Positions 1 through 56,422 are shown, counted from the stretch's first letter. The stretch: DNA of 64,000 bases from Parcubacteria group bacterium (GCA_041662245.1 JBAZSW010000005.1:57837-121836); one strand, 5' to 3'. Translations and numbers: made by a program. Notes: generated by a model not told the origin, from the letters alone.

Positions 1-1326
1 GTGATTCCGATTATTTCGGGTTGCGCTGAAAGCAAGTCCCAAAAATACGCAGTTGACCTAGAAATTTGGGGAAGTTTTGATGACACAGGAGATTTCTCAG
101 AGATAATTGGAGAATTTAAAAAAGCTAATCCATTTGTAGATAATATAATTTATAAAAAAGTACCTGTGGATAGTTATGAAAATGAATTAATTAACGCAAT
201 GGCTTCTGGCAATGGTCCTGATATATTTTTGATTAACAATGCTTGGATGCCTCGTTATGAAGATAAAGTAGCGCCAGCTCCTGATTACATTCTCAATGAA
301 AAAGATTATCGATCCAACTTTATCGATATTGCTGCTAATGATTTTATCGGAAAGCAGGGAGAGGTATATGGAACGCCACTTAGTGTTGATTCTCTGGCCT
401 TATACTATAATAAAGATTTATTTAATGCAGCAGGAATAACTAATCCTCCTGCCACTTGGAGTGAGCTATTGGATGATAGCAAAAAAATTACAAAATTGGA
501 CGATGTGAGTGAGATAAAAAAGTCAGGAATAGCGATGGGTACAGTTGAAAACATAAACCGATCGACAGATATCATTGATCTATTATTGTTTCAAAATGGA
601 GCACAGTTGCCAACTAAAAATAGCATTGGCTTTAAGCCTGATTATGAAATAGGAAAAAATGTTTTAGAATTTTATACTCAATTTGCGAAATTTAGTTCCC
701 CCGCTTATACTTGGAATAAAAATATGCATTATTCTATCGATGCATTTTATGAGGGAGATTTGGGTATGATGATAAATTATTCTTGGCATATTGATACTAT
801 AAAAAATAAAAATGCAAAATTGGATTTTGGTATTGCGCCTATTCCACAAATATCCAAAGATAGACCAGTTAATTATGCTAATTATTGGTCTTTTGTGGTT
901 AATAAAAATAAACAAATAAAACAAAAGACAAATGCAACTGCCATAACTAATGATATGCGAGTTCAGGAGGCTTGGCAGTTTTTGAAATTTTTAACTTGTA
1001 AAAATGAGGGCAAATTTACAGCTGTTAATTTTATAACAAAAAATAAGAAAGATTATGTGGTTAAAATAGACCCCGCCAGTTTATACATAGAAAATACTAA
1101 AAAACCAGCAGCTAGAAGAGATTTAATTGAAAAACAAAAAAATAATCCTCTCTTGAGTCCATTTGTTTACGGTAATCTAATAACTAAATCATGGTATAAG
1201 AAAAACTCTAATGCTATTGAAGGTATTTGGGCGGAAGTTGTGGGAGACATAAATAAAGGAGATATTACAGAAGCGCAGGCCTTTCATTTGGTGGACTATA
1301 GGATAAAGCAAGTGAATGTGGAATAA
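1..1326 (+). CDS. ABC transporter extracellular solute-binding lipoprotein (family 1, MalE-like); 5' end runs off window
   Basis: Lipobox-like ISGC near N-term. Length and motif pattern are typical of SBP family 1. The ORF starts at base 1 with GTG, so it is 5'-partial. Confidence 0.65.
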   Translation: MIPIISGCAESKSQKYAVDLEIWGSFDDTGDFSEIIGEFKKANPFVDNIIYKKVPVDSYENELINAMASGNGPDIFLINNAWMPRYEDKVAPAPDYILNEKDYRSNFIDIAANDFIGKQGEVYGTPLSVDSLALYYNKDLFNAAGITNPPATWSELLDDSKKITKLDDVSEIKKSGIAMGTVENINRSTDIIDLLLFQNGAQLPTKNSIGFKPDYEIGKNVLEFYTQFAKFSSPAYTWNKNMHYSIDAFYEGDLGMMINYSWHIDTIKNKNAKLDFGIAPIPQISKDRPVNYANYWSFVVNKNKQIKQKTNATAITNDMRVQEAWQFLKFLTCKNEGKFTAVNFITKNKKDYVVKIDPASLYIENTKKPAARRDLIEKQKNNPLLSPFVYGNLITKSWYKKNSNAIEGIWAEVVGDINKGDITEAQAFHLVDYRIKQVNVE

Positions 1327-1364
1327 TATGAGATTATAATTGATGATTAAATATATTTTAATCA

Positions 1365-2441
1365 ATGAAACCAAAAACAAATAAAAAAATATTCTTTCTT
1401 TTAGCATTGTTTTTTTTAACTTTTGCTTTTCAAATTCAAGCAGCCGATACAAATACCGGATTAGTTCCTTGTGGTCTTGATTCCACTTATGCAAATAGAT
1501 GCACCCTATGTCATTTAATCGTAGGAATTAGAGATATTATTGATTGGGGAAAAACTATTTTAATTGTTGTGGCCTTAGTGGCTATTGTTGCAGGAGCCAT
1601 AATGTACATAGTTAGTGCTGGAAATAATACTTTAATGGAAGCAGCTAAAAATGTTATCAAACAAGCTCTTTGGGGCGTCGTTATAGTTTTAGGAGCATGG
1701 GTAATTGTTAACACTGCCCTATGGTTGATAACTTCCAAGCTAAATGATTCTGGATCTAGCAGTCAGAAATTTTTAGATATTTCCAGTTGGAATGATTTTC
1801 AATGTACGGGGGGAGGAACTACTCCGGGAACAGTTGACCCAGTTAGCAAGCCTCTTAATGCAGATGGTTCCTGCCCAAGTGGTTATCACAAATCGTCTAG
1901 CGGTACGTTGTGTATAGAGGATGATAAAGTCACCAACCCAGACATTGTAGATCCAGATACCACAGATCCAGATACTACTAATCCAGATGTCACCAACCCA
2001 GATGTTATTAATCCTGATACTGCAGCTAACGATGTGAGTAAATTAGATGAAGATGGAACCAGAAGTTATTTGAACGATCATGGGATAACTGTAAATAAAG
2101 GAGCTTGCACTGCAGGGCAAACCAGTGGTTGCACGGATACTGACGGGCTAAGAGAGAATACTATAAACGGTGTTGTTCTTTTTAAGGAAGAATGTGGTGC
2201 TAGTTGCAATGTTGTCGTAACAGGTGGATCAGAAGGAAATGGAATACATAGCGAGAGGGGAACTTATAACCATATTAACGGATATAAAGTAGATATAAGA
2301 ACAGGTGAGGCTGTGGATAACTATATCACTAACAATTATACAAAAATTCCTACTCGAAGTGATGGAGCAACAGGTTATATCGATAGCTCTGGAAATAAAT
2401 ATTATAAAGAAGGAGATCACTGGGACATAACTTATATTTAG
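1365..2441 (+). CDS. T4SS-pilin-like (TrbC/VirB2-like) N-terminal module fused to a [T/N]PD[V/T][T/I] repeat linker and a Cys/His-rich C-terminal domain (possible M15-like peptidoglycan peptidase)
   Basis: Signal peptide, a CGL..C..C motif, then two TM helices flanking the SAG..AK loop shared with the downstream pilin paralogs. Five-residue PD repeats at nt 1930-2020. The C-terminal pattern HINGYKVD....DHWD weakly resembles the M15 Zn-peptidase motif. Confidence 0.55.
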   Translation: MKPKTNKKIFFLLALFFLTFAFQIQAADTNTGLVPCGLDSTYANRCTLCHLIVGIRDIIDWGKTILIVVALVAIVAGAIMYIVSAGNNTLMEAAKNVIKQALWGVVIVLGAWVIVNTALWLITSKLNDSGSSSQKFLDISSWNDFQCTGGGTTPGTVDPVSKPLNADGSCPSGYHKSSSGTLCIEDDKVTNPDIVDPDTTDPDTTNPDVTNPDVINPDTAANDVSKLDEDGTRSYLNDHGITVNKGACTAGQTSGCTDTDGLRENTINGVVLFKEECGASCNVVVTGGSEGNGIHSERGTYNHINGYKVDIRTGEAVDNYITNNYTKIPTRSDGATGYIDSSGNKYYKEGDHWDITYI

Positions 2442-2444
2442 AAA

Positions 2445-3560
2445 ATGAAACCAAAAACAAATAAAAAAATATTCTTTCTTTTAGCATTGTTTTTTTTAAC
2501 TTTTGCTTTTCAAATTCAAGCAGCCGATACAAATACCGGATTAGTTCCTTGTGGTCTTGATTCCACTTATGCAAATAGATGCACCCTATGTCATTTAATC
2601 GTAGGAATTAGAGATATTATTGATTGGGGAAAAACTATTTTAATTGTTGTGGCCTTAGTGGCTATTGTTGCAGGAGCCATAATGTACATAGTTAGTGCTG
2701 GAAATAATACTTTAATGGAAGCAGCTAAAAATGTTATCAAACAAGCTCTTTGGGGCGTCGTTATAGTTTTAGGAGCATGGGTAATTGTTAACACTGCCCT
2801 ATGGTTGATAACTTCCAAGCTAAATGATTCTGGATCTAGCAGTCAGAAATTTTTAGATATTTCCAGTTGGAATGATTTTCAATGTAAGGGGGGAGGAGGT
2901 GGCACTTCCACATCAACATCAACTTCAACTTCTACCTCCACATCTACTTCCACATCAACTTCAACTTCTACCTCCACATCTCCCGGAACGGGTACTATCC
3001 CTGATGCTTGCAAAAAATATGAAAGTGACTTCAGCAGTGCTGCAGGTGGAGATAATAATTTAAAATGTTTAATGATTGGAATAGCTAATAGTGAAAGTAA
3101 TTGCAACCCAAATATAGGCAACAGTTCAGCAGGCGCTTGTGGGATGATGCAAATTGTTCCTACCAGTGGAGTGGATTGTAATGAGTTAAGGAGTAATCCG
3201 CAGTCAAGTATTACAAGGGCTACTAGTATGATAAATAGTAATAAAAGTACGCTTGGTAGCAGGTATAGTTCAACTTTTGATATAGGAAATAGTAGTGGAC
3301 TAAGTGGTAAAAGTGTAACTTACGGAAATCATACTTATGATACAGGCAATGATGATCTAATTGCTTCTTATAATGGAGGAACAGGATCAGGAATTAATAG
3401 TAATGGAACTAAGCAACCCTTTGCTAAATCAACGGATTGTCCCACGACCAATCCAGCCACTCCCGCTTGGCAATGCAATATTAATCCGGTGGGTTTTAAT
3501 AAGACTCAGGATTATGTAAAATCAGTGCAAGACACTCAGAAAAAATGTTTGGGCAATTAG
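2445..3560 (+). CDS. T4SS-pilin-like N-terminal module fused to a (Thr-Ser)n linker and a lytic transglycosylase (SLT/VirB1-like) domain
   Basis: N-terminal 147 aa are identical to the upstream gene (nt 2443-2886 = 1363-1806). C-terminal IANSESNC...GACGMMQIVPTSG...SYNGG matches the SLT family-1 catalytic motifs (ES, GLMQ, YN). Confidence 0.7.
   Translation: MKPKTNKKIFFLLALFFLTFAFQIQAADTNTGLVPCGLDSTYANRCTLCHLIVGIRDIIDWGKTILIVVALVAIVAGAIMYIVSAGNNTLMEAAKNVIKQALWGVVIVLGAWVIVNTALWLITSKLNDSGSSSQKFLDISSWNDFQCKGGGGGTSTSTSTSTSTSTSTSTSTSTSTSTSPGTGTIPDACKKYESDFSSAAGGDNNLKCLMIGIANSESNCNPNIGNSSAGACGMMQIVPTSGVDCNELRSNPQSSITRATSMINSNKSTLGSRYSSTFDIGNSSGLSGKSVTYGNHTYDTGNDDLIASYNGGTGSGINSNGTKQPFAKSTDCPTTNPATPAWQCNINPVGFNKTQDYVKSVQDTQKKCLGN
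2896..2988 (+). repeat. In-frame tandem (TS)n coding repeat (two ~40-bp units) forming a flexible linker
   Basis: acttccacatcaac...ttctacctccacatct occurs twice and translates to (TS)~23. Confidence 0.8.
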
Positions 3561-3594: not shown

Positions 3595-3867
3595 ATGAAA
3601 ATAATAGAAATCGCTAAGGCAGGAGCAATTGAAGATGCCCCAACATTTTCTCAAATAGGGGGAAGTATAGTTAGTTTTATGTTGCAGGTTTTGGGAATTT
3701 TTGCTATAATAGGTTTGACGGTTACTGCTATCTTATATTTTACAGCAGGAGGGAATGAAGAAAGAATTAAGCTAGCTAAAAAATCATTTTTTTATTCTGT
3801 AGTGGGGATACTTATAGCCTTAGGTACGATGTTATTTTTATCACAGATCAAAAATTTTTTACAATAA
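3595..3867 (+). CDS. TrbC/VirB2-like T4SS pilin-like small membrane protein (paralog 1)
   Basis: Two TM helices flank a conserved YFTAGGNEERIKLAKKS loop. It is a paralog of the downstream array. Confidence 0.55.
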   Translation: MKIIEIAKAGAIEDAPTFSQIGGSIVSFMLQVLGIFAIIGLTVTAILYFTAGGNEERIKLAKKSFFYSVVGILIALGTMLFLSQIKNFLQ

Positions 3868-3915
3868 ATATATAAAAAAATAAAATAGAAATTTTCTTTG
3901 AAAGGAGGTGAGCTT

Positions 3916-4269
3916 ATGAAAACAAAAATAAAAAAAATAGTTTATTCAATTTCCTCTCTCGGTTTAGTAGCCCCTGTTATGATTCTTGCTTACACACCGC
4001 CATCTGATACAACTCTTCCAGAGGGAAGCATTACTGCTATCGTCAAACAATTTATGACTTGGATTTTAGGAATGGTGGGATTCTTAGGAGTAATTGGCTT
4101 TGCTATTGCTGGAATTCTTTATCTTACTTCTGCTGGTGATGAAGATAGAATTGGAACAGCTAAAAAGGCAATGACTTGGTCAATTGTCGGTGTAATCGTA
4201 GCTCTTTTGGGAGTAGTGATTATTAAAGCGGCTGATTCTATGCTTAAGGGAACATCTTCTGAGTTCTAA
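3916..4269 (+). CDS. TrbC/VirB2-like T4SS pilin-like protein (paralog 2)
   Basis: RBS aaaggaggtg precedes the ATG at 3916 (the ORF track starts at 3898). Signal peptide, LYLTSAGDEDRIGTAKKAMTWSI motif, and a C-terminal ML.GTSS tail. Confidence 0.65.
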   Translation: MKTKIKKIVYSISSLGLVAPVMILAYTPPSDTTLPEGSITAIVKQFMTWILGMVGFLGVIGFAIAGILYLTSAGDEDRIGTAKKAMTWSIVGVIVALLGVVIIKAADSMLKGTSSEF

Positions 4270-4343
4270 TTTTACATAAAATTAAAAATGGGGTTATTTT
4301 GATTATTTTATTTTTTTAAAATAACCCCGCTAAAAAAAATAAA

Positions 4344-4700
4344 ATGAAAAAAATAATTTATGGTTTGATGTCAGCGGCCTTGGTACTTCCTAGTTTTGCT
4401 TTGGGTCAATGGAGTGAGGGATATAATATGGCTTCTAGCTCAGGTGTGCCAGATGGAGGAATATTGGACATAGTAACTAATATAATGGATTGGCTTCTGA
4501 TACTTTTGGGAATATTTGGAATAATTGGTTTTGTTATTTCTGGTATTCTTTATTTGACAGCAGCAGGAGATGATGATCGAATGGCATCAGCTAAAAAAGC
4601 GATGTATTGGTCTATTTTGGGGGTAATCGTAGGAATAGTAGGGTTTGTAGTTATCAAAGCAGCCGATGCTATGCTTAGTGGAACTAGTTCTACTTTTTAA
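4344..4700 (+). CDS. TrbC/VirB2-like T4SS pilin-like protein (paralog 3)
   Basis: Signal peptide; NIMDWLLILLG...LYLTAAGDDDRMASAKKAMYWSI...AADAMLSGTSSTF. Confidence 0.65.
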   Translation: MKKIIYGLMSAALVLPSFALGQWSEGYNMASSSGVPDGGILDIVTNIMDWLLILLGIFGIIGFVISGILYLTAAGDDDRMASAKKAMYWSILGVIVGIVGFVVIKAADAMLSGTSSTF

Positions 4701-4722
4701 TATTTTATAAAAAAAGTAAAAT

Positions 4723-5067
4723 ATGAAAAAAACATTATCAAAATTTTTGGTATTGGGGCTATTTTTCCCTCTCATAACTTTGGCACAATGGACTAAGCCT
4801 ACCACGACTGGTTTACCGTCAAATACGATAAGTGCAATAGTAACCAATATAATGAATTGGCTTTTGATACTGTTAGGAGCTTTTGGAATAATTGGTTTCG
4901 TTGTTTCTGGAATTCTTTATTTGACAGCGGCAGGAAGAGATGACCAAATGGAATCAGCTAAAAAGGCAATGACTTGGTCTATTATTGGTGTGATTGTGGG
5001 TTTAATTGGACTGGTCATTATTACAGCAGCCGAAGCGATGCTGGGTGCAACTAGCGCTAGGTTTTAA
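4723..5067 (+). CDS. TrbC/VirB2-like T4SS pilin-like protein (paralog 4)
   Basis: Same architecture and motif (LYLTAAGRDDQMESAKKAMTWSI). Confidence 0.65.
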   Translation: MKKTLSKFLVLGLFFPLITLAQWTKPTTTGLPSNTISAIVTNIMNWLLILLGAFGIIGFVVSGILYLTAAGRDDQMESAKKAMTWSIIGVIVGLIGLVIITAAEAMLGATSARF

Positions 5068-5108
5068 AGATTTCTACGAAATTTGTTTATTTTTTTACAC
5101 TTTAAATT

Positions 5109-5462
5109 ATGATGATTAAAAAGACATCATTAAAAATATTTAGTTTTTTTGTTTTAACGCTGCCAATGTTAGTGTCGGCTCAATACACAGCGCCAAAAGA
5201 CACGAAACTTCCCACAGGAGAATTAGCCACTATTATAACTAATATAATGAATTGGCTACTGGTAATTTTGGGAGTAATTGGAGTAATTGGTTTTGTTATT
5301 GCAGGAATTTTTTATTTAACAGCGGCGGGAAATGATGATCAAATAAGTACAGCTAAAAAGGCGATGACTTGGTCGGTTGTGGGGGTAATTGTGGGGTTAG
5401 TAGGTTTGGTAATTATTACAGCTGTTGAAACAATGTTGGGCGGGACTGATCCTAAATTTTAA
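5109..5462 (+). CDS. TrbC/VirB2-like T4SS pilin-like protein (paralog 5)
   Basis: Same architecture and motif (FYLTAAGNDDQISTAKKAMTWSV). Confidence 0.65.
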   Translation: MMIKKTSLKIFSFFVLTLPMLVSAQYTAPKDTKLPTGELATIITNIMNWLLVILGVIGVIGFVIAGIFYLTAAGNDDQISTAKKAMTWSVVGVIVGLVGLVIITAVETMLGGTDPKF

Positions 5463-5475
5463 TTTTAATTAATAT

Positions 5476-5874
5476 ATGAAAAATAAATTTGCTATATTTT
5501 TTTTATTGCTAGGATTGGTTTTTTTTGCTGGAAAAGTTTTAGCTGTGACTTGTCCCAGCTCAGGGAGTTGGGATAGTTCGTCGGGAGTCTGCATTCCTAA
5601 TAATACTGGATTACCTTCTCCAGGAGGAGATAGCCCTTTGGCAACTGTAATTAATAATGTAATGAAGTGGCTGCTTCTTATAGTAGGATCTATAGCTATC
5701 ATTGCTTTTGTGATTTCGGGTATTCAATATTTAACTTCTGCGGGAGATCAAAATGCAATTGAAAACGCCAAACGAAATATGTGGTGGTCGATTGTGGGAG
5801 TAGTAGTTGCTCTAATAGGGATGATAATTCTTAATTTTGTTTTTACGACTATTTTGGGTGGGTCTTCTTCGTAA
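5476..5874 (+). CDS. TrbC/VirB2-like T4SS pilin-like protein (paralog 6, with an extra Cys-containing N-terminal segment)
   Basis: Signal peptide; CPSSGSWDSSSGVC; QYLTSAGDQNAIENAKRNMWWSI. Confidence 0.6.
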   Translation: MKNKFAIFFLLLGLVFFAGKVLAVTCPSSGSWDSSSGVCIPNNTGLPSPGGDSPLATVINNVMKWLLLIVGSIAIIAFVISGIQYLTSAGDQNAIENAKRNMWWSIVGVVVALIGMIILNFVFTTILGGSSS

Positions 5875-5928
5875 AGTTAATTAATCTGAATTTAAGTTTA
5901 TTTTAAATAATATAAATAAAATATTAAA

Positions 5929-6564
5929 ATGAAAATTTTAAATTTTAAAAAAATAATAGCCAGTTTTCTGATGAGTATTTTTATATTTTGTGGTTCCTTT
6001 AATTTAGCTTTAGCGGCTTGTGCTACAGGAACTACGGCTAGTGGAAATATTTGTTTTGAAAACCCTTTGTCTTATAATACCGTAGATGGAATTTTAAGCG
6101 CGCTTCTTATTCATTTACAGGGGATAATCGTGGTAATTTCGATGGTTTTTATTGTGATCGGAGCTATCCTTTATATGACTTCAGCTGGAGATGAAGGAAA
6201 AATGAAAATAGCTAAAGGAGCAATTTTTGCGGCGGTGATCGGACTGGCGATTGGAATCGCGGCGCCATCATTTTTAAAAGAAATTTATACTGCCTTAGGA
6301 AAAAGTACTAGTGATAGTCTTATTTCTTCTGCTCCAGATCTGGCTACAATTGCACTTAATGTCCTTAACTTTTTGCTTAGCGTTACAGGAGTGATTGGAA
6401 TTATAATGTTGGTAGCAGCAGGAATAGCCTATATGACCGCAGCTGGAAATGAAGGTCAAATTGAAACAGCTAAAAAAATGACTACTTGGGCAATTATTGG
6501 AATTGCAGTAGCTTTGGGAGCTTTGGTAATAGTTCAACAAGTGGCTAAATTTTTCTCTACATAG
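5929..6564 (+). CDS. Tandem two-domain TrbC/VirB2-like pilin-like protein (paralog 7, internal duplication)
   Basis: Two successive TM-loop-TM modules: LYMTSAGDEGKMKIAKGAIFAAV and AYMTAAGNEGQIETAKKMTTWAI. Confidence 0.6.
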   Translation: MKILNFKKIIASFLMSIFIFCGSFNLALAACATGTTASGNICFENPLSYNTVDGILSALLIHLQGIIVVISMVFIVIGAILYMTSAGDEGKMKIAKGAIFAAVIGLAIGIAAPSFLKEIYTALGKSTSDSLISSAPDLATIALNVLNFLLSVTGVIGIIMLVAAGIAYMTAAGNEGQIETAKKMTTWAIIGIAVALGALVIVQQVAKFFST

Positions 6565-6630
6565 AAATAGGATATTATTTAAAATCGCAAACACATTATA
6601 GGGTGTTTGTTTTTTTGTAAAATAAAAAAA

Positions 6631-6663: not shown

Positions 6664-7809
6664 TTATTCCCGCACCTCCTTTTCGATAGTGATGGTCAAA
6701 GGATTGACCGTTGAATTTTTGAAGGCTGGCCTTCTTATCACTGAAGAATTAAATTCATCAGGTCTCATAAGGATGTTAATCCTCATTGAGAGATCCGAAT
6801 CTTTATTCATTGAAATGACGAATCCTTCTTCAGTTTTTGGAGTAATATTCTCTCCGTTATTGAGAAGGATTATGGCCCCAAAATTCATCTTCTTTTCTTG
6901 CCTGAATTCTGGTTTGCCCCCAAGGGCATTATCCCCCTGCCATGGAAATTCCGTCCATGAGTGATTACTCATGAAAAGTTGCCAGTTACCGGAAATTTTA
7001 ATCCGGTAATTTCCTTCCTCGAGTCTTTTAAGACTCAAAGGAATTTTAGCAATGCATTGGTTGTGAGCAATATCAAATTGCTCAACTTGAGAAAAGTCAA
7101 CAACCTTTTTTTCGATGACTTTCTCCCAACCGAATGTTTTTCCGTTAGGTCCCCATTCTATCATTCGAATAGGGACAAGAGCCTTGGGACTTTTCACAAA
7201 ATGACCGTGTTCATTAGATATTAACACGTAAGCCATTCCTTCGCTCCCATCATTTTGCTTTTTGCTTTCAATTCCAAGGGACATAACTTTCTGACCCTTT
7301 TTAAGAAACAGGTCTGATATTATGTTCCCATTCTCATCGTACGCCGGAGAGCTTTCTTTCATTTCTCCAAAAGTTCCGGTGTTAGACTCCGATTTCATCA
7401 TTTCTTTTTTCATTGAAATGGTGGAATCTTCGGTCCTTTTTACGAACAATTCTTTGCTACTTTTTTTGAATCCGGCGTAAGCAGGATTGTTTCTAGTGAC
7501 AAGATTGTCAATTGCAGGAAAAACTATTCCTAAAAAAACAACCTCGAAAACAAACCATACTGCCCAGATGGCGAGCAGGAAATTTCTTGCAGGCCTTATA
7601 ATGGGTATCCATATTCCCAAGGTAATCAATATAAATAGCACAAAGAAAATTTCTTTGTAAACTACTACAAATGAAAACCCAAAGATTATGCAGAAAAGAA
7701 ATAATCCCCCTAATAGTACAGGGATGATTATCCTTGTGGTAGGACCAGAAATAAAACTCCAGACGTAACCAATCAAAGCGCCGATAAAAGAAAAAATAGT
7801 TCTAAACAT
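6664..7809 (-). CDS. Hypothetical integral membrane protein (4 N-terminal TM helices plus a ~250-aa soluble domain)
   Basis: Long ORF with a hydrophobic N-terminus and no recognisable motif. Confidence 0.5.
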   Translation of the reverse strand: MFRTIFSFIGALIGYVWSFISGPTTRIIIPVLLGGLFLFCIIFGFSFVVVYKEIFFVLFILITLGIWIPIIRPARNFLLAIWAVWFVFEVVFLGIVFPAIDNLVTRNNPAYAGFKKSSKELFVKRTEDSTISMKKEMMKSESNTGTFGEMKESSPAYDENGNIISDLFLKKGQKVMSLGIESKKQNDGSEGMAYVLISNEHGHFVKSPKALVPIRMIEWGPNGKTFGWEKVIEKKVVDFSQVEQFDIAHNQCIAKIPLSLKRLEEGNYRIKISGNWQLFMSNHSWTEFPWQGDNALGGKPEFRQEKKMNFGAIILLNNGENITPKTEEGFVISMNKDSDLSMRINILMRPDEFNSSVIRRPAFKNSTVNPLTITIEKEVRE

Positions 7810-22537: not shown

Positions 22538-22933
22538 ATGGAAAACAAAAAAGAAAAAATAAAATCATTTACTGATTTAAACGCTTGGAGAGAAGGACAT
22601 AAGTTGGTTTTAGAAATTTATAATATAACGAAACTATTTCCTGAAGATGAGAGATTTGGTTTAATTTCTCAGATGAGAAGATGTGCAGTTTCTATAACAT
22701 CAAATATCGCAGAGGGTTTTAGCCGTAAGGGTATGAAGGAAAAAATTCAGTTTTATCATATATCTCTTGGATCTATAACAGAATTGCAAAATCAGCTATT
22801 GATCTGTAGAGATTTAAAAATTTTAGATAATGATAAATTTAAAAAAATAGCCCAGCAGACGACGCTGGTACAAAAAATTACCAACGGATTAATCAAGTCA
22901 ACAAAATATATGAATTCTGAATTTAATTCATAA
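22538..22933 (+). CDS. Four-helix-bundle protein (23S rRNA intervening-sequence protein family), copy 1
   Basis: AW..GHKLVLEIY..T..FP..ERFGLISQMRRCAVSITSNIAEGF.R. Flanked by the inverted repeat tgaattaagaatta. Confidence 0.85.
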   Translation: MENKKEKIKSFTDLNAWREGHKLVLEIYNITKLFPEDERFGLISQMRRCAVSITSNIAEGFSRKGMKEKIQFYHISLGSITELQNQLLICRDLKILDNDKFKKIAQQTTLVQKITNGLIKSTKYMNSEFNS

Positions 22934-24018: not shown

Positions 24019-24408
24019 GTGTTTAGAAATATGGGAAATGAAAAGATAAAGGATTTTACAGACTTAATCGTTTGGAAAGAGGGACATAAATTGGTATTAA
24101 TGATTTATGATGCTACAAATAACTTTCCTAAAAATGAAAGATTTGGTTTAGTTTCTCAGATGAGGAGATGCGCAGTTTCCATTACATCTAATATTGCAGA
24201 AGGATTTGGAAGAAAAGGATACAAAGAGAAACTGCAATTTTATTATGTGTCATCAGGATCGCTTAGCGAATTGAAAAATCAGACTTTAATTGCTAAAGAT
24301 GTAAAATATTTATCCGAAAAATCTTTTATTGATATTATGCAACGAGCTGATTCTACGCACAAACTTTTAAATTTATTTATATCGAAAACAAAAACATTTG
24401 TATCTTGA
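24019..24408 (+). CDS. Four-helix-bundle protein (23S rRNA IVS protein family), copy 2
   Basis: LIVWKEGHKLVLMIY...RFGLVSQMRRCAVSITSNIAEGFGRKG. Confidence 0.85.
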   Translation: MFRNMGNEKIKDFTDLIVWKEGHKLVLMIYDATNNFPKNERFGLVSQMRRCAVSITSNIAEGFGRKGYKEKLQFYYVSSGSLSELKNQTLIAKDVKYLSEKSFIDIMQRADSTHKLLNLFISKTKTFVS

Positions 24409-26622: not shown

Positions 26623-27000
26623 ATGGAAAAGGAAGAATTTAAAAAAATGTTAAAATTAAGAGCCTTCAATCTGGCTCGAAATATAATGAAATTAACAGAT
26701 AGATTTCCTCAAAAAAGATCTGCTTGGGTAATAGCTGATCAATTACTTCGTTCCGCCACTAGTATTGGAGCCAATATAATAGAGGCACAAGCGGCCAGTT
26801 CAAAAAGAGATTTTATAAATTTTTTAAACCATGCACTAAAGAGTGGCAATGAAACCAAATTTTGGTTGGCATTAGCTAAAGATTTGGATGATAAATTAGT
26901 TCCAGAAATAGAAAAACAACTCAAAGAAACTGATGAGCTAGTAAGAATACTAGGTTCTAGCATAACAACTTTAAAAGGTAAGAAAACTTTGAATTGTTAA
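26623..27000 (+). CDS. Four-helix-bundle protein (23S rRNA IVS protein family), copy 3 (divergent)
   Basis: AFNLARNIMKLTDRFP...QLLRSATSIGANIIEAQA. Flanked by an inverted gtgcaaaattaaaagttgcaa / tgcaaagttaaaaatta. Confidence 0.75.
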   Translation: MEKEEFKKMLKLRAFNLARNIMKLTDRFPQKRSAWVIADQLLRSATSIGANIIEAQAASSKRDFINFLNHALKSGNETKFWLALAKDLDDKLVPEIEKQLKETDELVRILGSSITTLKGKKTLNC

Positions 27001-40223: not shown

Positions 40224-40658
40224 TTAGTTCTTTTTTATTTTTTCTATTTTATAATCATTGAAATGAATTCCAGATAAAATCAATCCAACTATAAATAAGA
40301 AGGGGGATAATATTATTCCGTAGCGCACTTTAATCGCGACAATAATTGCTATGATGCAACAGAGAAGTGCCATCATCCCAAGAAAAATTCTTTTTATTTC
40401 TGACATAATATTTAGAGTATGATTTTTGGAGAATTTTTTTTCTTGGATTATTTTGTCTATTCGAGGAGTGTGAATGTAAACAGCCAAAGAAAAAGATCCT
40501 GTTATGGAAAAAATAACAAAAAAGATAAATCCGTAAGAAGCTCCGAAAACTAAAGTAATTGCACCTAGATAGCAGATAATAGCTGTTATTAAAAGGGTAG
40601 GATTATTTGTTTTTGGAAAGACATTCGTTTCGATTTTAATTATATTTTTAAATGACAT
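40224..40658 (-). CDS. Hypothetical membrane protein (4 TM helices)
   Basis: Hydrophobic ORF. Confidence 0.45.
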   Translation of the reverse strand: MSFKNIIKIETNVFPKTNNPTLLITAIICYLGAITLVFGASYGFIFFVIFSITGSFSLAVYIHTPRIDKIIQEKKFSKNHTLNIMSEIKRIFLGMMALLCCIIAIIVAIKVRYGIILSPFLFIVGLILSGIHFNDYKIEKIKKN

Positions 40659-41288: not shown

Positions 41289-41672
41289 TTATTTTCTGCT
41301 GTATTTTTGTAACGCTCTAGAAATATCATCAAGCGCAATGGATTCTTTTTTTATCTCTTCGAATATATTTCTGTAATTGTTTAAGGAAGTTTCCTTAATC
41401 AATAGTTCTCTTTTTAATTGGTCAATCATTTCTAGCGCCGACTTGAGACTTAGTTGAAGAGCAATAATACGCTCTCTGTCGTTAACTAAATCGTCTAAGG
41501 TAAATTCTGTGAGAGAATATAAAAATTTTTCTGTACCTATTTCCGTTAATTCATTTTTCGAAAGTGACTTTTCTTGTTGGGAAAGGGCTGATCCTTTTAG
41601 GGAGGAAATCATCACCTTTAGTTCTCCTAGTAATGAAACTTCTAGTGGCAAACTGCTTGTTGTTTCAACCAT
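41289..41672 (-). CDS. Hypothetical coiled-coil protein (127 aa)
   Basis: ORF with heptad-like charge pattern. Confidence 0.45.
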   Translation of the reverse strand: MVETTSSLPLEVSLLGELKVMISSLKGSALSQQEKSLSKNELTEIGTEKFLYSLTEFTLDDLVNDRERIIALQLSLKSALEMIDQLKRELLIKETSLNNYRNIFEEIKKESIALDDISRALQKYSRK

Positions 41673-55718: not shown

Positions 55719-55876
55719 TTAAAACTAAAAATATCAAAGAAAGTATTTTTGTTAAATTGAATATAAATGGTGCGGGGTATTTACAAAAAACAATAATAGT
55801 GGTACAAGTAATTAGCGACTTAATAAGGGGTTGCTTTTTAGTTAAGAATAAAAACAAGAAAAGGGGAGGAAAATTC

Positions 55877-56422
55877 ATGTTAAAATGGTTCTTTTGTATT
55901 GTCTTGGTAGTGTCTATGGGTACAGGTGTGGCGGGCGCTACACTGGTATCCGACACAGTTGCCTTGGGACCCACCTCAAATTTTGAGGGGTACGTAAGCC
56001 ATGGTCGTGGCGATGTGAACTTCCTGGATGGAATTGGCGACTTTGTGGCTTGGGAGCATACATTTAATGTTGCACCTAACGCTCAAGATGCCACATTGGA
56101 AATTTCTTTTCGGGATGATGACTCTGACAGTTGGAGGCCGTCGTCTTGGGAGCTAGCCATTTTTGTCGGGGAAAGTGCTCAGATACTGGTTACTGTAGGA
56201 GAGGTCAACACCGGAGTTTGGACGACGTCAATTGACCCCAGTTTTCTTTCAGATGGGATTTTCCAAGCTGTTATCTGGAGTGTTTGGGGAGATCTCTATG
56301 TGGATTCTGCCACTTTGAGTTTTGAGTCTGTTCCTGTGGCACCTGTTCCCGAGCCAGCAACGATGTTGCTATTCGGGGCTGGACTTTCTCTATTTGGGAT
56401 AGTGAGACGCAAACAGTCATAG
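55877..56422 (+). CDS. PEP-CTERM sorting-domain protein (secreted; start at 55877 after the RBS aaggggagga)
   Basis: Signal peptide. C-terminal VPEPATMLLFGAGLSLFGIVRRKQS is a PEP motif plus TM plus basic tail. Sits in a GC-enriched segment. Confidence 0.65.
   Translation: MLKWFFCIVLVVSMGTGVAGATLVSDTVALGPTSNFEGYVSHGRGDVNFLDGIGDFVAWEHTFNVAPNAQDATLEISFRDDDSDSWRPSSWELAIFVGESAQILVTVGEVNTGVWTTSIDPSFLSDGIFQAVIWSVWGDLYVDSATLSFESVPVAPVPEPATMLLFGAGLSLFGIVRRKQS

Follow-up and report, generated by a model that had tools for sequence, protein, structure and literature searches.

A 64,000-nucleotide stretch of genomic DNA from a Parcubacteria group bacterium (GCA_041662245.1 JBAZSW010000005.1:57837-121836), referred to here as the window, carries seven consecutive open reading frames (ORFs) on its plus strand between positions 3595 and 6564, with listed lengths of 90, 123, 118, 114, 117, 132, and 211 amino acids (aa). 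These genes, named p1–p7, are members of the pilin family PF18895 (T4SS_pilin; T4SS, type IV secretion system). When whole-protein scores were compared with the gathering cutoff of 26.6 bits, 7/7 genes exceeded it (E-values of 3e-7 to 2e-16), and p7 was matched in two stretches. At the DNA level, the segment encoding the loop of the pilin module forms a direct-repeat family of eight copies (family D2). A preliminary description, drawn from the sequence alone, had claimed seven same-strand pilin-family genes with eight modules in this interval, and both the coordinates and the family assignment held. Table 1 collects the features of the locus, including two fusion genes upstream of the array (f1 and f2). 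A promoter scan gave a count no higher than the shuffled expectation.

Table 1 Features of the pilin locus, with positions counted from the first letter of the window.
Feature	Position	Strand	Description
Solute-binding protein (SBP) gene	1..1326	+	Orphan ABC-type solute-binding protein gene, 3' part; context, not a pilin
f1	1365..2441	+	Pilin-like anchor (aa 1-147), D/P/T-rich linker, C-terminal domain of unknown family
f2	2445..3560	+	Pilin-like anchor identical to that of f1, (TS)n linker, C-terminal SLT lytic transglycosylase domain
~450-nt repeat	1364..1817 and 2444..2897	+	5' part of f1 and f2; one mismatch, offset 1080, repeat family D3
p1	3595..3867	+	90-aa pilin module without signal peptide; PF18895 30.9 bits
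Shine-Dalgarno sequence	3903..3908	+	Perfect AGGAGG, 7 nt before the p2 ATG
p2	3916..4269 (ORF listed from TTG 3898)	+	117-aa pilin, candidate major subunit; PF18895 34.5 bits
Stem-loop	4290..4328	+	13-bp stem-loop in the p2-p3 gap; minimum free energy -17.5 kcal/mol, z = -3.8
p3	4344..4700	+	118-aa pilin, fast-evolving middle block; PF18895 34.0 bits
p4	4723..5067	+	114-aa pilin, middle block; PF18895 41.7 bits
p5	5109..5462	+	117-aa pilin, middle block; PF18895 40.5 bits
p6	5476..5874	+	132-aa pilin, Cys-x12-Cys insert after signal peptide; PF18895 46.9 bits
p7	5929..6564	+	211 aa, two pilin modules, four transmembrane helices after signal peptide; PF18895 60.3 bits
Terminator-like hairpin and T-run	6587..6620	+	23 nt past the p7 stop; closes the operon

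A hydropathy scan places a signal-like N-terminal segment in these proteins and two strong hydrophobic helices in each module. The exception is p1, which consists of two hydrophobic helices and nothing else. The two helices are joined by a short polar loop, as seen in hydropathy, in alignment, and in an AlphaFold2 (AF2) model of p7. This model, computed with 33 orthologs (mean pLDDT 80.9), contains a signal helix followed by hairpins at residues 52–84/89–123 and 138–170/175–210, a structure compatible with the two-helix hairpin proposed earlier. The preliminary description had assigned a signal peptide, transmembrane (TM) helix, loop, second TM helix, and tail to every gene. This scheme stands for p2–p6, where the loop motif and GTSS-like tail fit well; p1 is without a signal peptide, and motif and tail are loose in p1 and p7.

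Pairwise identity among the eight modules is 23–60% (mean ~36%), rising to 74% in the core shared by p3 and p4, in keeping with the high divergence first noted. The two halves of p7 are 24–28% identical to each other, no closer than to the other modules, and more than 120 orthologs of p7, at 50–80% identity, likewise have two modules. Because its halves are this dissimilar and the order as a whole shares the fusion, p7, annotated as a “hypothetical protein” at NCBI, is on sequence grounds an ancient fusion of two divergent modules and not the recent internal duplication it had been taken for.

By its sequence, the host is a Moranbacteria-type Patescibacterium, and the array keeps its place and makeup across related genomes. 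The order of SBP gene, two fusion genes, pilins, and eventually infB is held in at least 10 Moranbacteria loci. On one contig (L014), it reads SBP, two fusion genes, seven PF18895 genes, three unknowns, infB, rbfA and, further on, secE and nusG. A local HMM scan found four loci (L004, L006, L008, and L009) to be alike, each with a 90-aa gene, three or four genes of ~120 aa, one of ~130 aa, and one two-module gene of ~208 aa. Relative to positional orthologs, p1 is 68–79% identical, p6 64–67%, p7 68–76%, and p2, the most conserved member of the array, 80–95% (dN/dS of 0.05–0.18). For calibration, IF-2 and RbfA of the same genomes are 89–93% and 85–89% identical, respectively. The paralogs within the window share 30–58% identity by BLASTP. 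In more distant Moranbacteria, with IF-2 at 59–64% identity, the array retains the two-module gene and a p2-type gene together with two or three more, though in a changed order. Taken together, these comparisons indicate that the locus is a conserved, vertically inherited chromosomal operon and not a shuffling repertoire.

Within the array, p2 carries distinctive expression signals. Its ORF is listed from a TTG codon, but translation from there would run through a perfect Shine-Dalgarno (SD) sequence, and the most likely start is therefore ATG 3916, giving a protein of 117 aa. The SD has the same spacing in 5/5 orthologous loci (L004, L006, L008, L009, and L014). The leaders of the other array genes are A/T-rich, with SD matches of at most 3/6, and a perfect SD precedes 1/42 of the other plus-strand genes in the window. 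Downstream of p2 lies the longest intergenic gap of the array, which contains the stem-loop listed in Table 1; five other genomes have the same stem (GGGGUUAUUUU/AAAAUAACCCC) behind their p2 ortholog, with z-scores of −3.4 to −4.4. Because the hairpin has no U-tract in the sub-lineage of the window, and because its covariation is uninformative (the stem is sequence-conserved and one row is misaligned), we only infer that it acts as an attenuator or as an RNA stability, processing, or 3'-end element.

The same marking recurs at greater distance. Across eight distant loci, the gene marked by an SD and a terminator best matches p2 in 7/8 cases, at 56–66% identity, which makes it as conserved as IF-2. 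AGGAGG or GGGAGG precedes the p2-type gene in 6/8 of these loci, and most of these loci (six by eye) also show a canonical stem and U-tract terminator behind it, in many cases with a TGnTATAAT-like promoter thereafter. A strong ribosome-binding site combined with a downstream hairpin is the classical means by which chaperone-usher and type IV pilus operons arrive at a high major-to-minor subunit ratio. As the only gene of the array with a perfect, conserved SD, and with a conserved hairpin behind it, p2 has the signature that suggests a major subunit, with the other members as conserved minor subunits.

The two genes upstream of the array, f1 and f2, had been described as pilin fusions. Their anchors fall short of the PF18895 cutoff (18.6 bits, E 0.002); the assignment is carried instead by the local HMM (43 bits) and further supported by a homolog that does carry PF18895. 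The product of the DNA shared by f1 and f2 comprises a signal peptide, a stretch with Cys residues (LVPCG...C..C), and the pilin-like hairpin. This anchor pair is kept in L009 and L014. Within each of these loci the two anchors are 94% identical, and within the window 100%, whereas the window anchors are only 64–73% identical to those of L009 and L014. Since the anchors are far closer within genomes than between them, this pattern indicates concerted evolution, with gene conversion still under way between the two hydrolase genes.

The domains displayed by these anchors differ in how readily they are recognized. That of f2 matches the SLT family PF01464 at 34.1 bits, above the cutoff of 21.3, and has PHROG matches to endolysin and transglycosylase families; the catalytic motifs SESNCNP...GMMQI...SYNGG are visible in the translation. 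The C-terminal domain of f1 (~residues 220–358, nucleotides 2022–2441) has no match in Pfam, NCBIfam, or PHROG and only chance-level phmmer matches in the PDB. Seven homologs are detectable among 5.8 billion proteins, and TGG.E, H-x6-D, and E..HWD are invariant in the eight sequences. An AF2 model of the domain is confident, with a pLDDT of 86.8 and a pTM of 0.82. In Foldseek, the only long alignments of the C-terminal domain were to the Sonic hedgehog N-domain (Shh-N) and pneumococcal VldE, which are LAS-fold zinc hydrolases, and to phage lysin-like proteins, none of them significant (E 0.17–0.66 for Shh-N and VldE). From this model we propose, at low confidence, that the domain is probably a LAS-type zinc peptidase; it may represent a new branch of these enzymes. 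By analogy with pilin topology, the C-terminal domains of both proteins would lie outside the cell. Both linkers are of low complexity, with (Thr-Ser)n in f2 at 2903–2986 and D-P-D-T/N repeats in f1 at ~1900–2020; the 12-nt periodic repeat of the f2 linker could vary in length between strains.

Kinship to VirB2/TrbC proteins was gauged with family models and by profile-profile alignment. Against PF04956 (TrbC/VirB2), p6 is the sole array gene with a match, at 23.6 bits (E 6.2e-5), which is under the cutoff of 27.9, and many p7 orthologs have a precomputed PF04956 match. The NCBIfam model NF045849 (Mbov_0395-family) is matched by 7/7 genes at 20.5–38.3 bits, all under its 40-bit cutoff. A query profile of 26 Moranbacteria module sequences was aligned using hhalign with a reference VirB2/TrbC profile of eight annotated genes from conjugative alphaproteobacterial plasmids. 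The alignment scored 29.0 (P 1.4e-4, probability 52%) and was confident over helix 1 only. As controls, 30 column-shuffled templates scored 10.6 ± 1.8 (maximum 14.9) and the reversed template scored 15.4. In a greedier alignment, colinearity extended from the A-x-A|Q signal-peptidase site through helix 1 and the loop to helix 2. Because the score lies above both the shuffled and the reversed controls, the kinship of the array pilins to true VirB2 appears to be real but distant, and at the family level the TrbC/VirB2-like identity first proposed is supported.

The wider family is very large. Because the eight-module alignment was too diverse to serve as the seed of a genome scan, a four-sequence alignment was used instead; in an exhaustive profile search, the family amounted to 61,098 clusters at 50% identity (E ≤ 1e-3). 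It includes “polypilins”, single polypeptides of 4, 6, 8, and even 17 hairpin modules (P0214, P0130, P0128, and P0133), the largest of them 1775 aa long. The searched papers that name PF18895 or T4SS_pilin contain no mention of such proteins.

Arrays of this type are a published trait of Patescibacteria (PMC12102498, PMC10633639), and the preliminary description was right to call them characteristic of the group. In a survey of 3,035 Patescibacteria genomes based on PF18895 and PF04956, Quiñonero-Coronel et al. (2025) reported 441 arrays of 2–11 pilin genes in 383 assemblies, with a mean identity of 25% and a maximum of 54% (PMC12102498). As defined there (at least two tandem VirB2-type genes with no more than one non-pilin gene between them in a Patescibacteria genome), the seven window genes form an array. 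Like the published arrays, it consists of tandem PF18895/PF04956-type chromosomal genes of low identity, its gene number lies within the range of 2–11, and it is not beside virB4, as such arrays do not always stand there. It differs in that its identity reaches 60% and in that it belongs to Paceibacteria/Moranbacteria, whereas the published arrays are commonest in Microgenomatia and Saccharimonadia. Most VirB2-bearing genomes are said in that survey to be without VirB1, and it is silent on positional orthology, on any major-subunit signature, on two-module fusions of pilins, and on hydrolases with pilin anchors (PMC12102498).

The nearest experimental counterpart is the pilin series of Southlakia epibionticum, which lies in the T4SS cluster SEML1_0006-0019 and was found by Wang et al. 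(2023) to be essential by Tn-seq (PMC10633639; reviewed in PMC12857230). Both series comprise divergent, structurally similar VirB2-like pilins of a monoderm epibiont without a relaxase or conjugation context. The S. epibionticum genes are inside the T4SS cluster, whereas the window array is apart from T4SS genes and comes from a different class. The function of the Patescibacteria T4SS-like system itself has been called completely unknown (PMC11665869).

Likenesses extend to T4SSs of other bacteria. As in the MPF-T VirB2/TrbC pilins (Agrobacterium T-pilin; PF04956), a long signal peptide runs to A-x-A|Q, followed by two helices with a short loop and a small C-terminal tail, and a lytic transglycosylase gene lies immediately upstream. 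The MPF-T clusters of alphaproteobacterial plasmids run virB1 (SLT), virB2, virB3, and the window locus keeps the first two steps. In contrast to these systems, the window pilins are under the PF04956 cutoff, their loop is ~9 residues longer with a conserved T-A-A-G-D/N-D/E...AKK, and the locus is multi-paralog, in a monoderm host, with no virB3/virB4 downstream. PrgK, TraG of pIP501, and CwlT of Gram-positive T4SSs similarly combine a membrane-anchored lytic transglycosylase with a second peptidoglycan-cutting activity. Here, the predicted activities are on two proteins, each fused to the same pilin-like hairpin, and where the second domain of PrgK/TraG/CwlT is CHAP/NlpC-P60, that of f1 is an uncharacterised domain with an H-x6-D...H signature. 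The Mbov_0395 family (NF045849) of Mycoplasma integrative and conjugative elements (ICEs) resembles the array in being small two-helix proteins in a wall-less/monoderm T4SS context; it differs in that the window has no ICE context and scores sub-cutoff.

In light of these data, we favor, with somewhat better than even confidence, the reading that the operon encodes filament or conduit subunits of a Patescibacteria T4SS-like apparatus, with p2 as the major subunit, the other pilins as minor ones, and the upstream hydrolases in the role of VirB1. Each pilin would be inserted by Sec, six of them with cleavable A-x-A-type signal peptides and p1 without one, and would rest in the membrane as a helical hairpin, its two ends on the outer face and its short charged loop on the cytoplasmic side. 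While p2 would make up the bulk of the structure, p1 and p3–p7 would be stoichiometrically minor, each conserved in its own right and serving a separate role, for example in initiation, at the base or tip, or in contact with the host, and p7 would act as a covalent two-subunit unit. The faster-evolving middle block p3–p5 may face the host. On their identical pilin-like hairpin, f1 and f2 would display wall-cutting enzymes outside the membrane, a probable zinc peptidase and an SLT lytic transglycosylase, and would open the peptidoglycan for the structure or possibly attack the host wall. Assembly would fall to a VirB4-type machine whose genes would lie in another part of the genome.

The greatest doubt concerns whether the hairpins of the array form a filament at all, and a number of observations weigh against the favored reading. 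To our knowledge, pili of this kind are yet to be observed in any Patescibacterium. VirB3, VirB4, VirB6, VirD4, and other T4SS components were not found in the 64-kb window, where ORFs of at least 100–120 aa were inspected and the unassigned ones Pfam-scanned, which for VirB4 and VirB6 agrees with the preliminary description. Neither were VirB3, VirB4, VirB6, or VirD4 found within ±10 kb of the syntenic locus on the 1.27 Mb contig L014. Among named relatives, the closest is GW2011_GWF2_35_54 (a 1.22 Mb draft), and the survey listing gives it as VirB4-negative (PMC12102498). The eight-module profile had no match among all PDB sequences even at E ≤ 10, with no solved pilin matched, and a Foldseek search of the PDB with the p7 model returned generic helical bundles only, none at E ≤ 1e-3, a result that is uninformative for a helical hairpin and not a refutation. 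The hairpin behind p2, having no U-tract in the sub-lineage of the window, is not a canonical terminator. Finally, polypeptides of 4–17 modules appear hard to fit with a classical pilus built from extractable single subunits, and such multi-module relatives keep open a membrane-embedded or pre-assembled-tube alternative to a single-subunit filament.

An alternative reading is that the array encodes small two-helix membrane proteins, forming for example a ring or platform, or exported membrane-active peptides, in either case acting independently of a T4SS, so that the word pilin would describe ancestry only. The lack of T4SS machinery nearby, the listed VirB4-negative status of a close relative, and family polyproteins with up to 17 hairpin modules all speak for this alternative, as do the weak similarity to true VirB2 and the fact that monoderm T4SSs are generally pilus-free (PMC12857230). 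The same review raises the possibility that those of Patescibacteria make pili. The non-filament alternative sits less well with the homologous series of S. epibionticum, located inside an essential T4SS cluster (PMC10633639), and with the survey, in which a VirB2-like gene is near virB4 in 1,135/1,948 assemblies (PMC12102498). Of 15 Moranbacteria assemblies examined in Table S1 of that survey, 13 are also VirB4-positive (among them GWE2_35_164 and GWE2_35_2-, which have p7 orthologs; PMC12102498). Moreover, an SLT wall hydrolase directly upstream suits an envelope-spanning structure. We consider a non-filamentous role unlikely, yet a serious contender.

The preliminary description had suggested a combinatorial or variable repertoire for antigenic or host-range variation; on this reading, the paralogs would be alternative major subunits, used interchangeably or in combination. 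The high divergence of the paralogs is in line with this idea, as is the behavior of the middle genes. With dN of 0.28–0.39, p3–p5 are evolving 2–3 times faster than p1, p2, and p7; they have no clear one-to-one orthologs (p3 is 54–60% identical to any ortholog candidate, with dN of 0.28–0.35), and their copy number differs between species, L008 and L009 having one copy fewer. Multiple VirB2 paralogs in Bartonella and Anaplasma provide a precedent, and host-range versatility of pilin arrays has been offered as speculation (PMC12102498).

Against such a repertoire, array order and the genes p1, p2, p6, and p7 are kept by position across species, and orthologs are closer to each other than paralogs. 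Nei-Gojobori dN/dS values for the seven genes against three genomes are 0.05–0.28, rough estimates as dS exceeds 1, and indicate that every array gene is under purifying selection. All genes are intact, on the same strand, and separated by short gaps, with one shared terminal terminator and a strong ribosome-binding site in one gene only. Inside the array, we found no long identical tracts, silent cassettes, or inverted repeats, with maximum identity of 78–82% over 245 nt; the lack of a long identical tract argues against recent gene conversion or cassette exchange. Faster evolution and varying copy number are confined to p3–p5. On balance, switching for antigenic or host-range purposes is improbable, and the other option raised at the outset, that these are minor pilins, fits the evidence better.

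A more elaborate reading, and in our estimation a long shot, is a heteropolymeric T4SS-type filament of a monoderm cell. It would be built from p2 as major subunit with fixed minors, the doubled p7 included, and would incorporate two wall-degrading enzymes through their hairpins, an “enzyme-armed” pilus cutting the epibiont's own wall, the host wall, or both; the polypilins of up to 17 modules would then be pre-assembled tube segments. Lastly, type IV pilus (T4P) pilins or type II secretion-like pseudopilins are ruled out by sequence features, since, even though Patescibacteria possess T4P needed for host contact (PMC12857230), the class III prepilin leader (G|F-x-x-x-E) is absent in favor of ordinary A-x-A type signal peptides, the mature proteins carry two TM helices and not a single N-terminal one, and no T4P pilin family is over the Pfam cutoff, with p5 alone matching Flp_Fap far sub-threshold (13.5 bits vs 32.2).

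The remainder of the window provides the setting of the locus. It is chromosomal and of low GC (~34%), with the housekeeping genes infB, rbfA, nusG, rplK/rplA, dnaK/grpE/hrcA, mreBCD, a PBP2-type gene, and nrdD; neither tRNAs nor Rfam families were found in it. An assembly artefact was ruled out by identical genes in an independent read-level assembly (L001) and by the presence of orthologous loci. Twelve related loci in species-representative genomes are all from Moranbacteria, Moraniibacteriota, or Parcubacteria metagenome-assembled genomes, with differing record titles for four. Titled “uncultured Bdellovibrionales” despite Moranbacteria-type pilin arrays and syntenic infB/SBP genes, L005, L007, L010, and L011 are probably mislabelled. 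An SBP homolog lies directly upstream of the fusion and pilin genes in nine related loci, so placed in each Moranbacteria locus inspected (L002–L014), and the L014 ortholog (PF01547/PF13416) has no adjoining permease genes. In the window SBP, a putative lipobox “ISGC” can be seen by eye near the first listed ORF residues.

On the other side of the array, a minus-strand gene (6664–7809) encodes a 381-aa protein with several N-terminal TM helices and a soluble C-terminal domain; it has no family match, and L004, L009, and L012 carry homologs downstream of their arrays. Further along, three paralogous ORFs of ~125–130 aa (22538–22933, 24019–24408, and 26623–27000) are interleaved with MacB-type ABC exporter genes and look by eye like candidates for the four-helix-bundle “23S rRNA intervening-sequence protein” family. 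The segment 40001–42000 has a GC content of 0.27, compared with ~0.34 elsewhere, and small minus-strand ORFs at 40224–40658 and 41289–41672. The product of 55757–56422 ends in a C-terminal PEP-CTERM sorting motif (29 bits vs 20.7), which is uncommon for a Patescibacterium; the window showed no exosortase that was noticed.

A sizeable fraction of bacterial diversity belongs to the Patescibacteria, whose members live attached to other microbes. In the sole species tested, a T4SS-like system with a pilin series is essential (PMC10633639). The array phenomenon is already published, and the locus is no new kind of system. What it adds are orthologs conserved by position, a single gene with the marks of high expression, two-module pilins that are themselves conserved, and paired hydrolases on a homogenised anchor. 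VirB1-type enzymes of this form may possibly have been overlooked by HMM surveys using coverage filters. With these features, the idea of a variable repertoire becomes a testable model of major and minor subunits.

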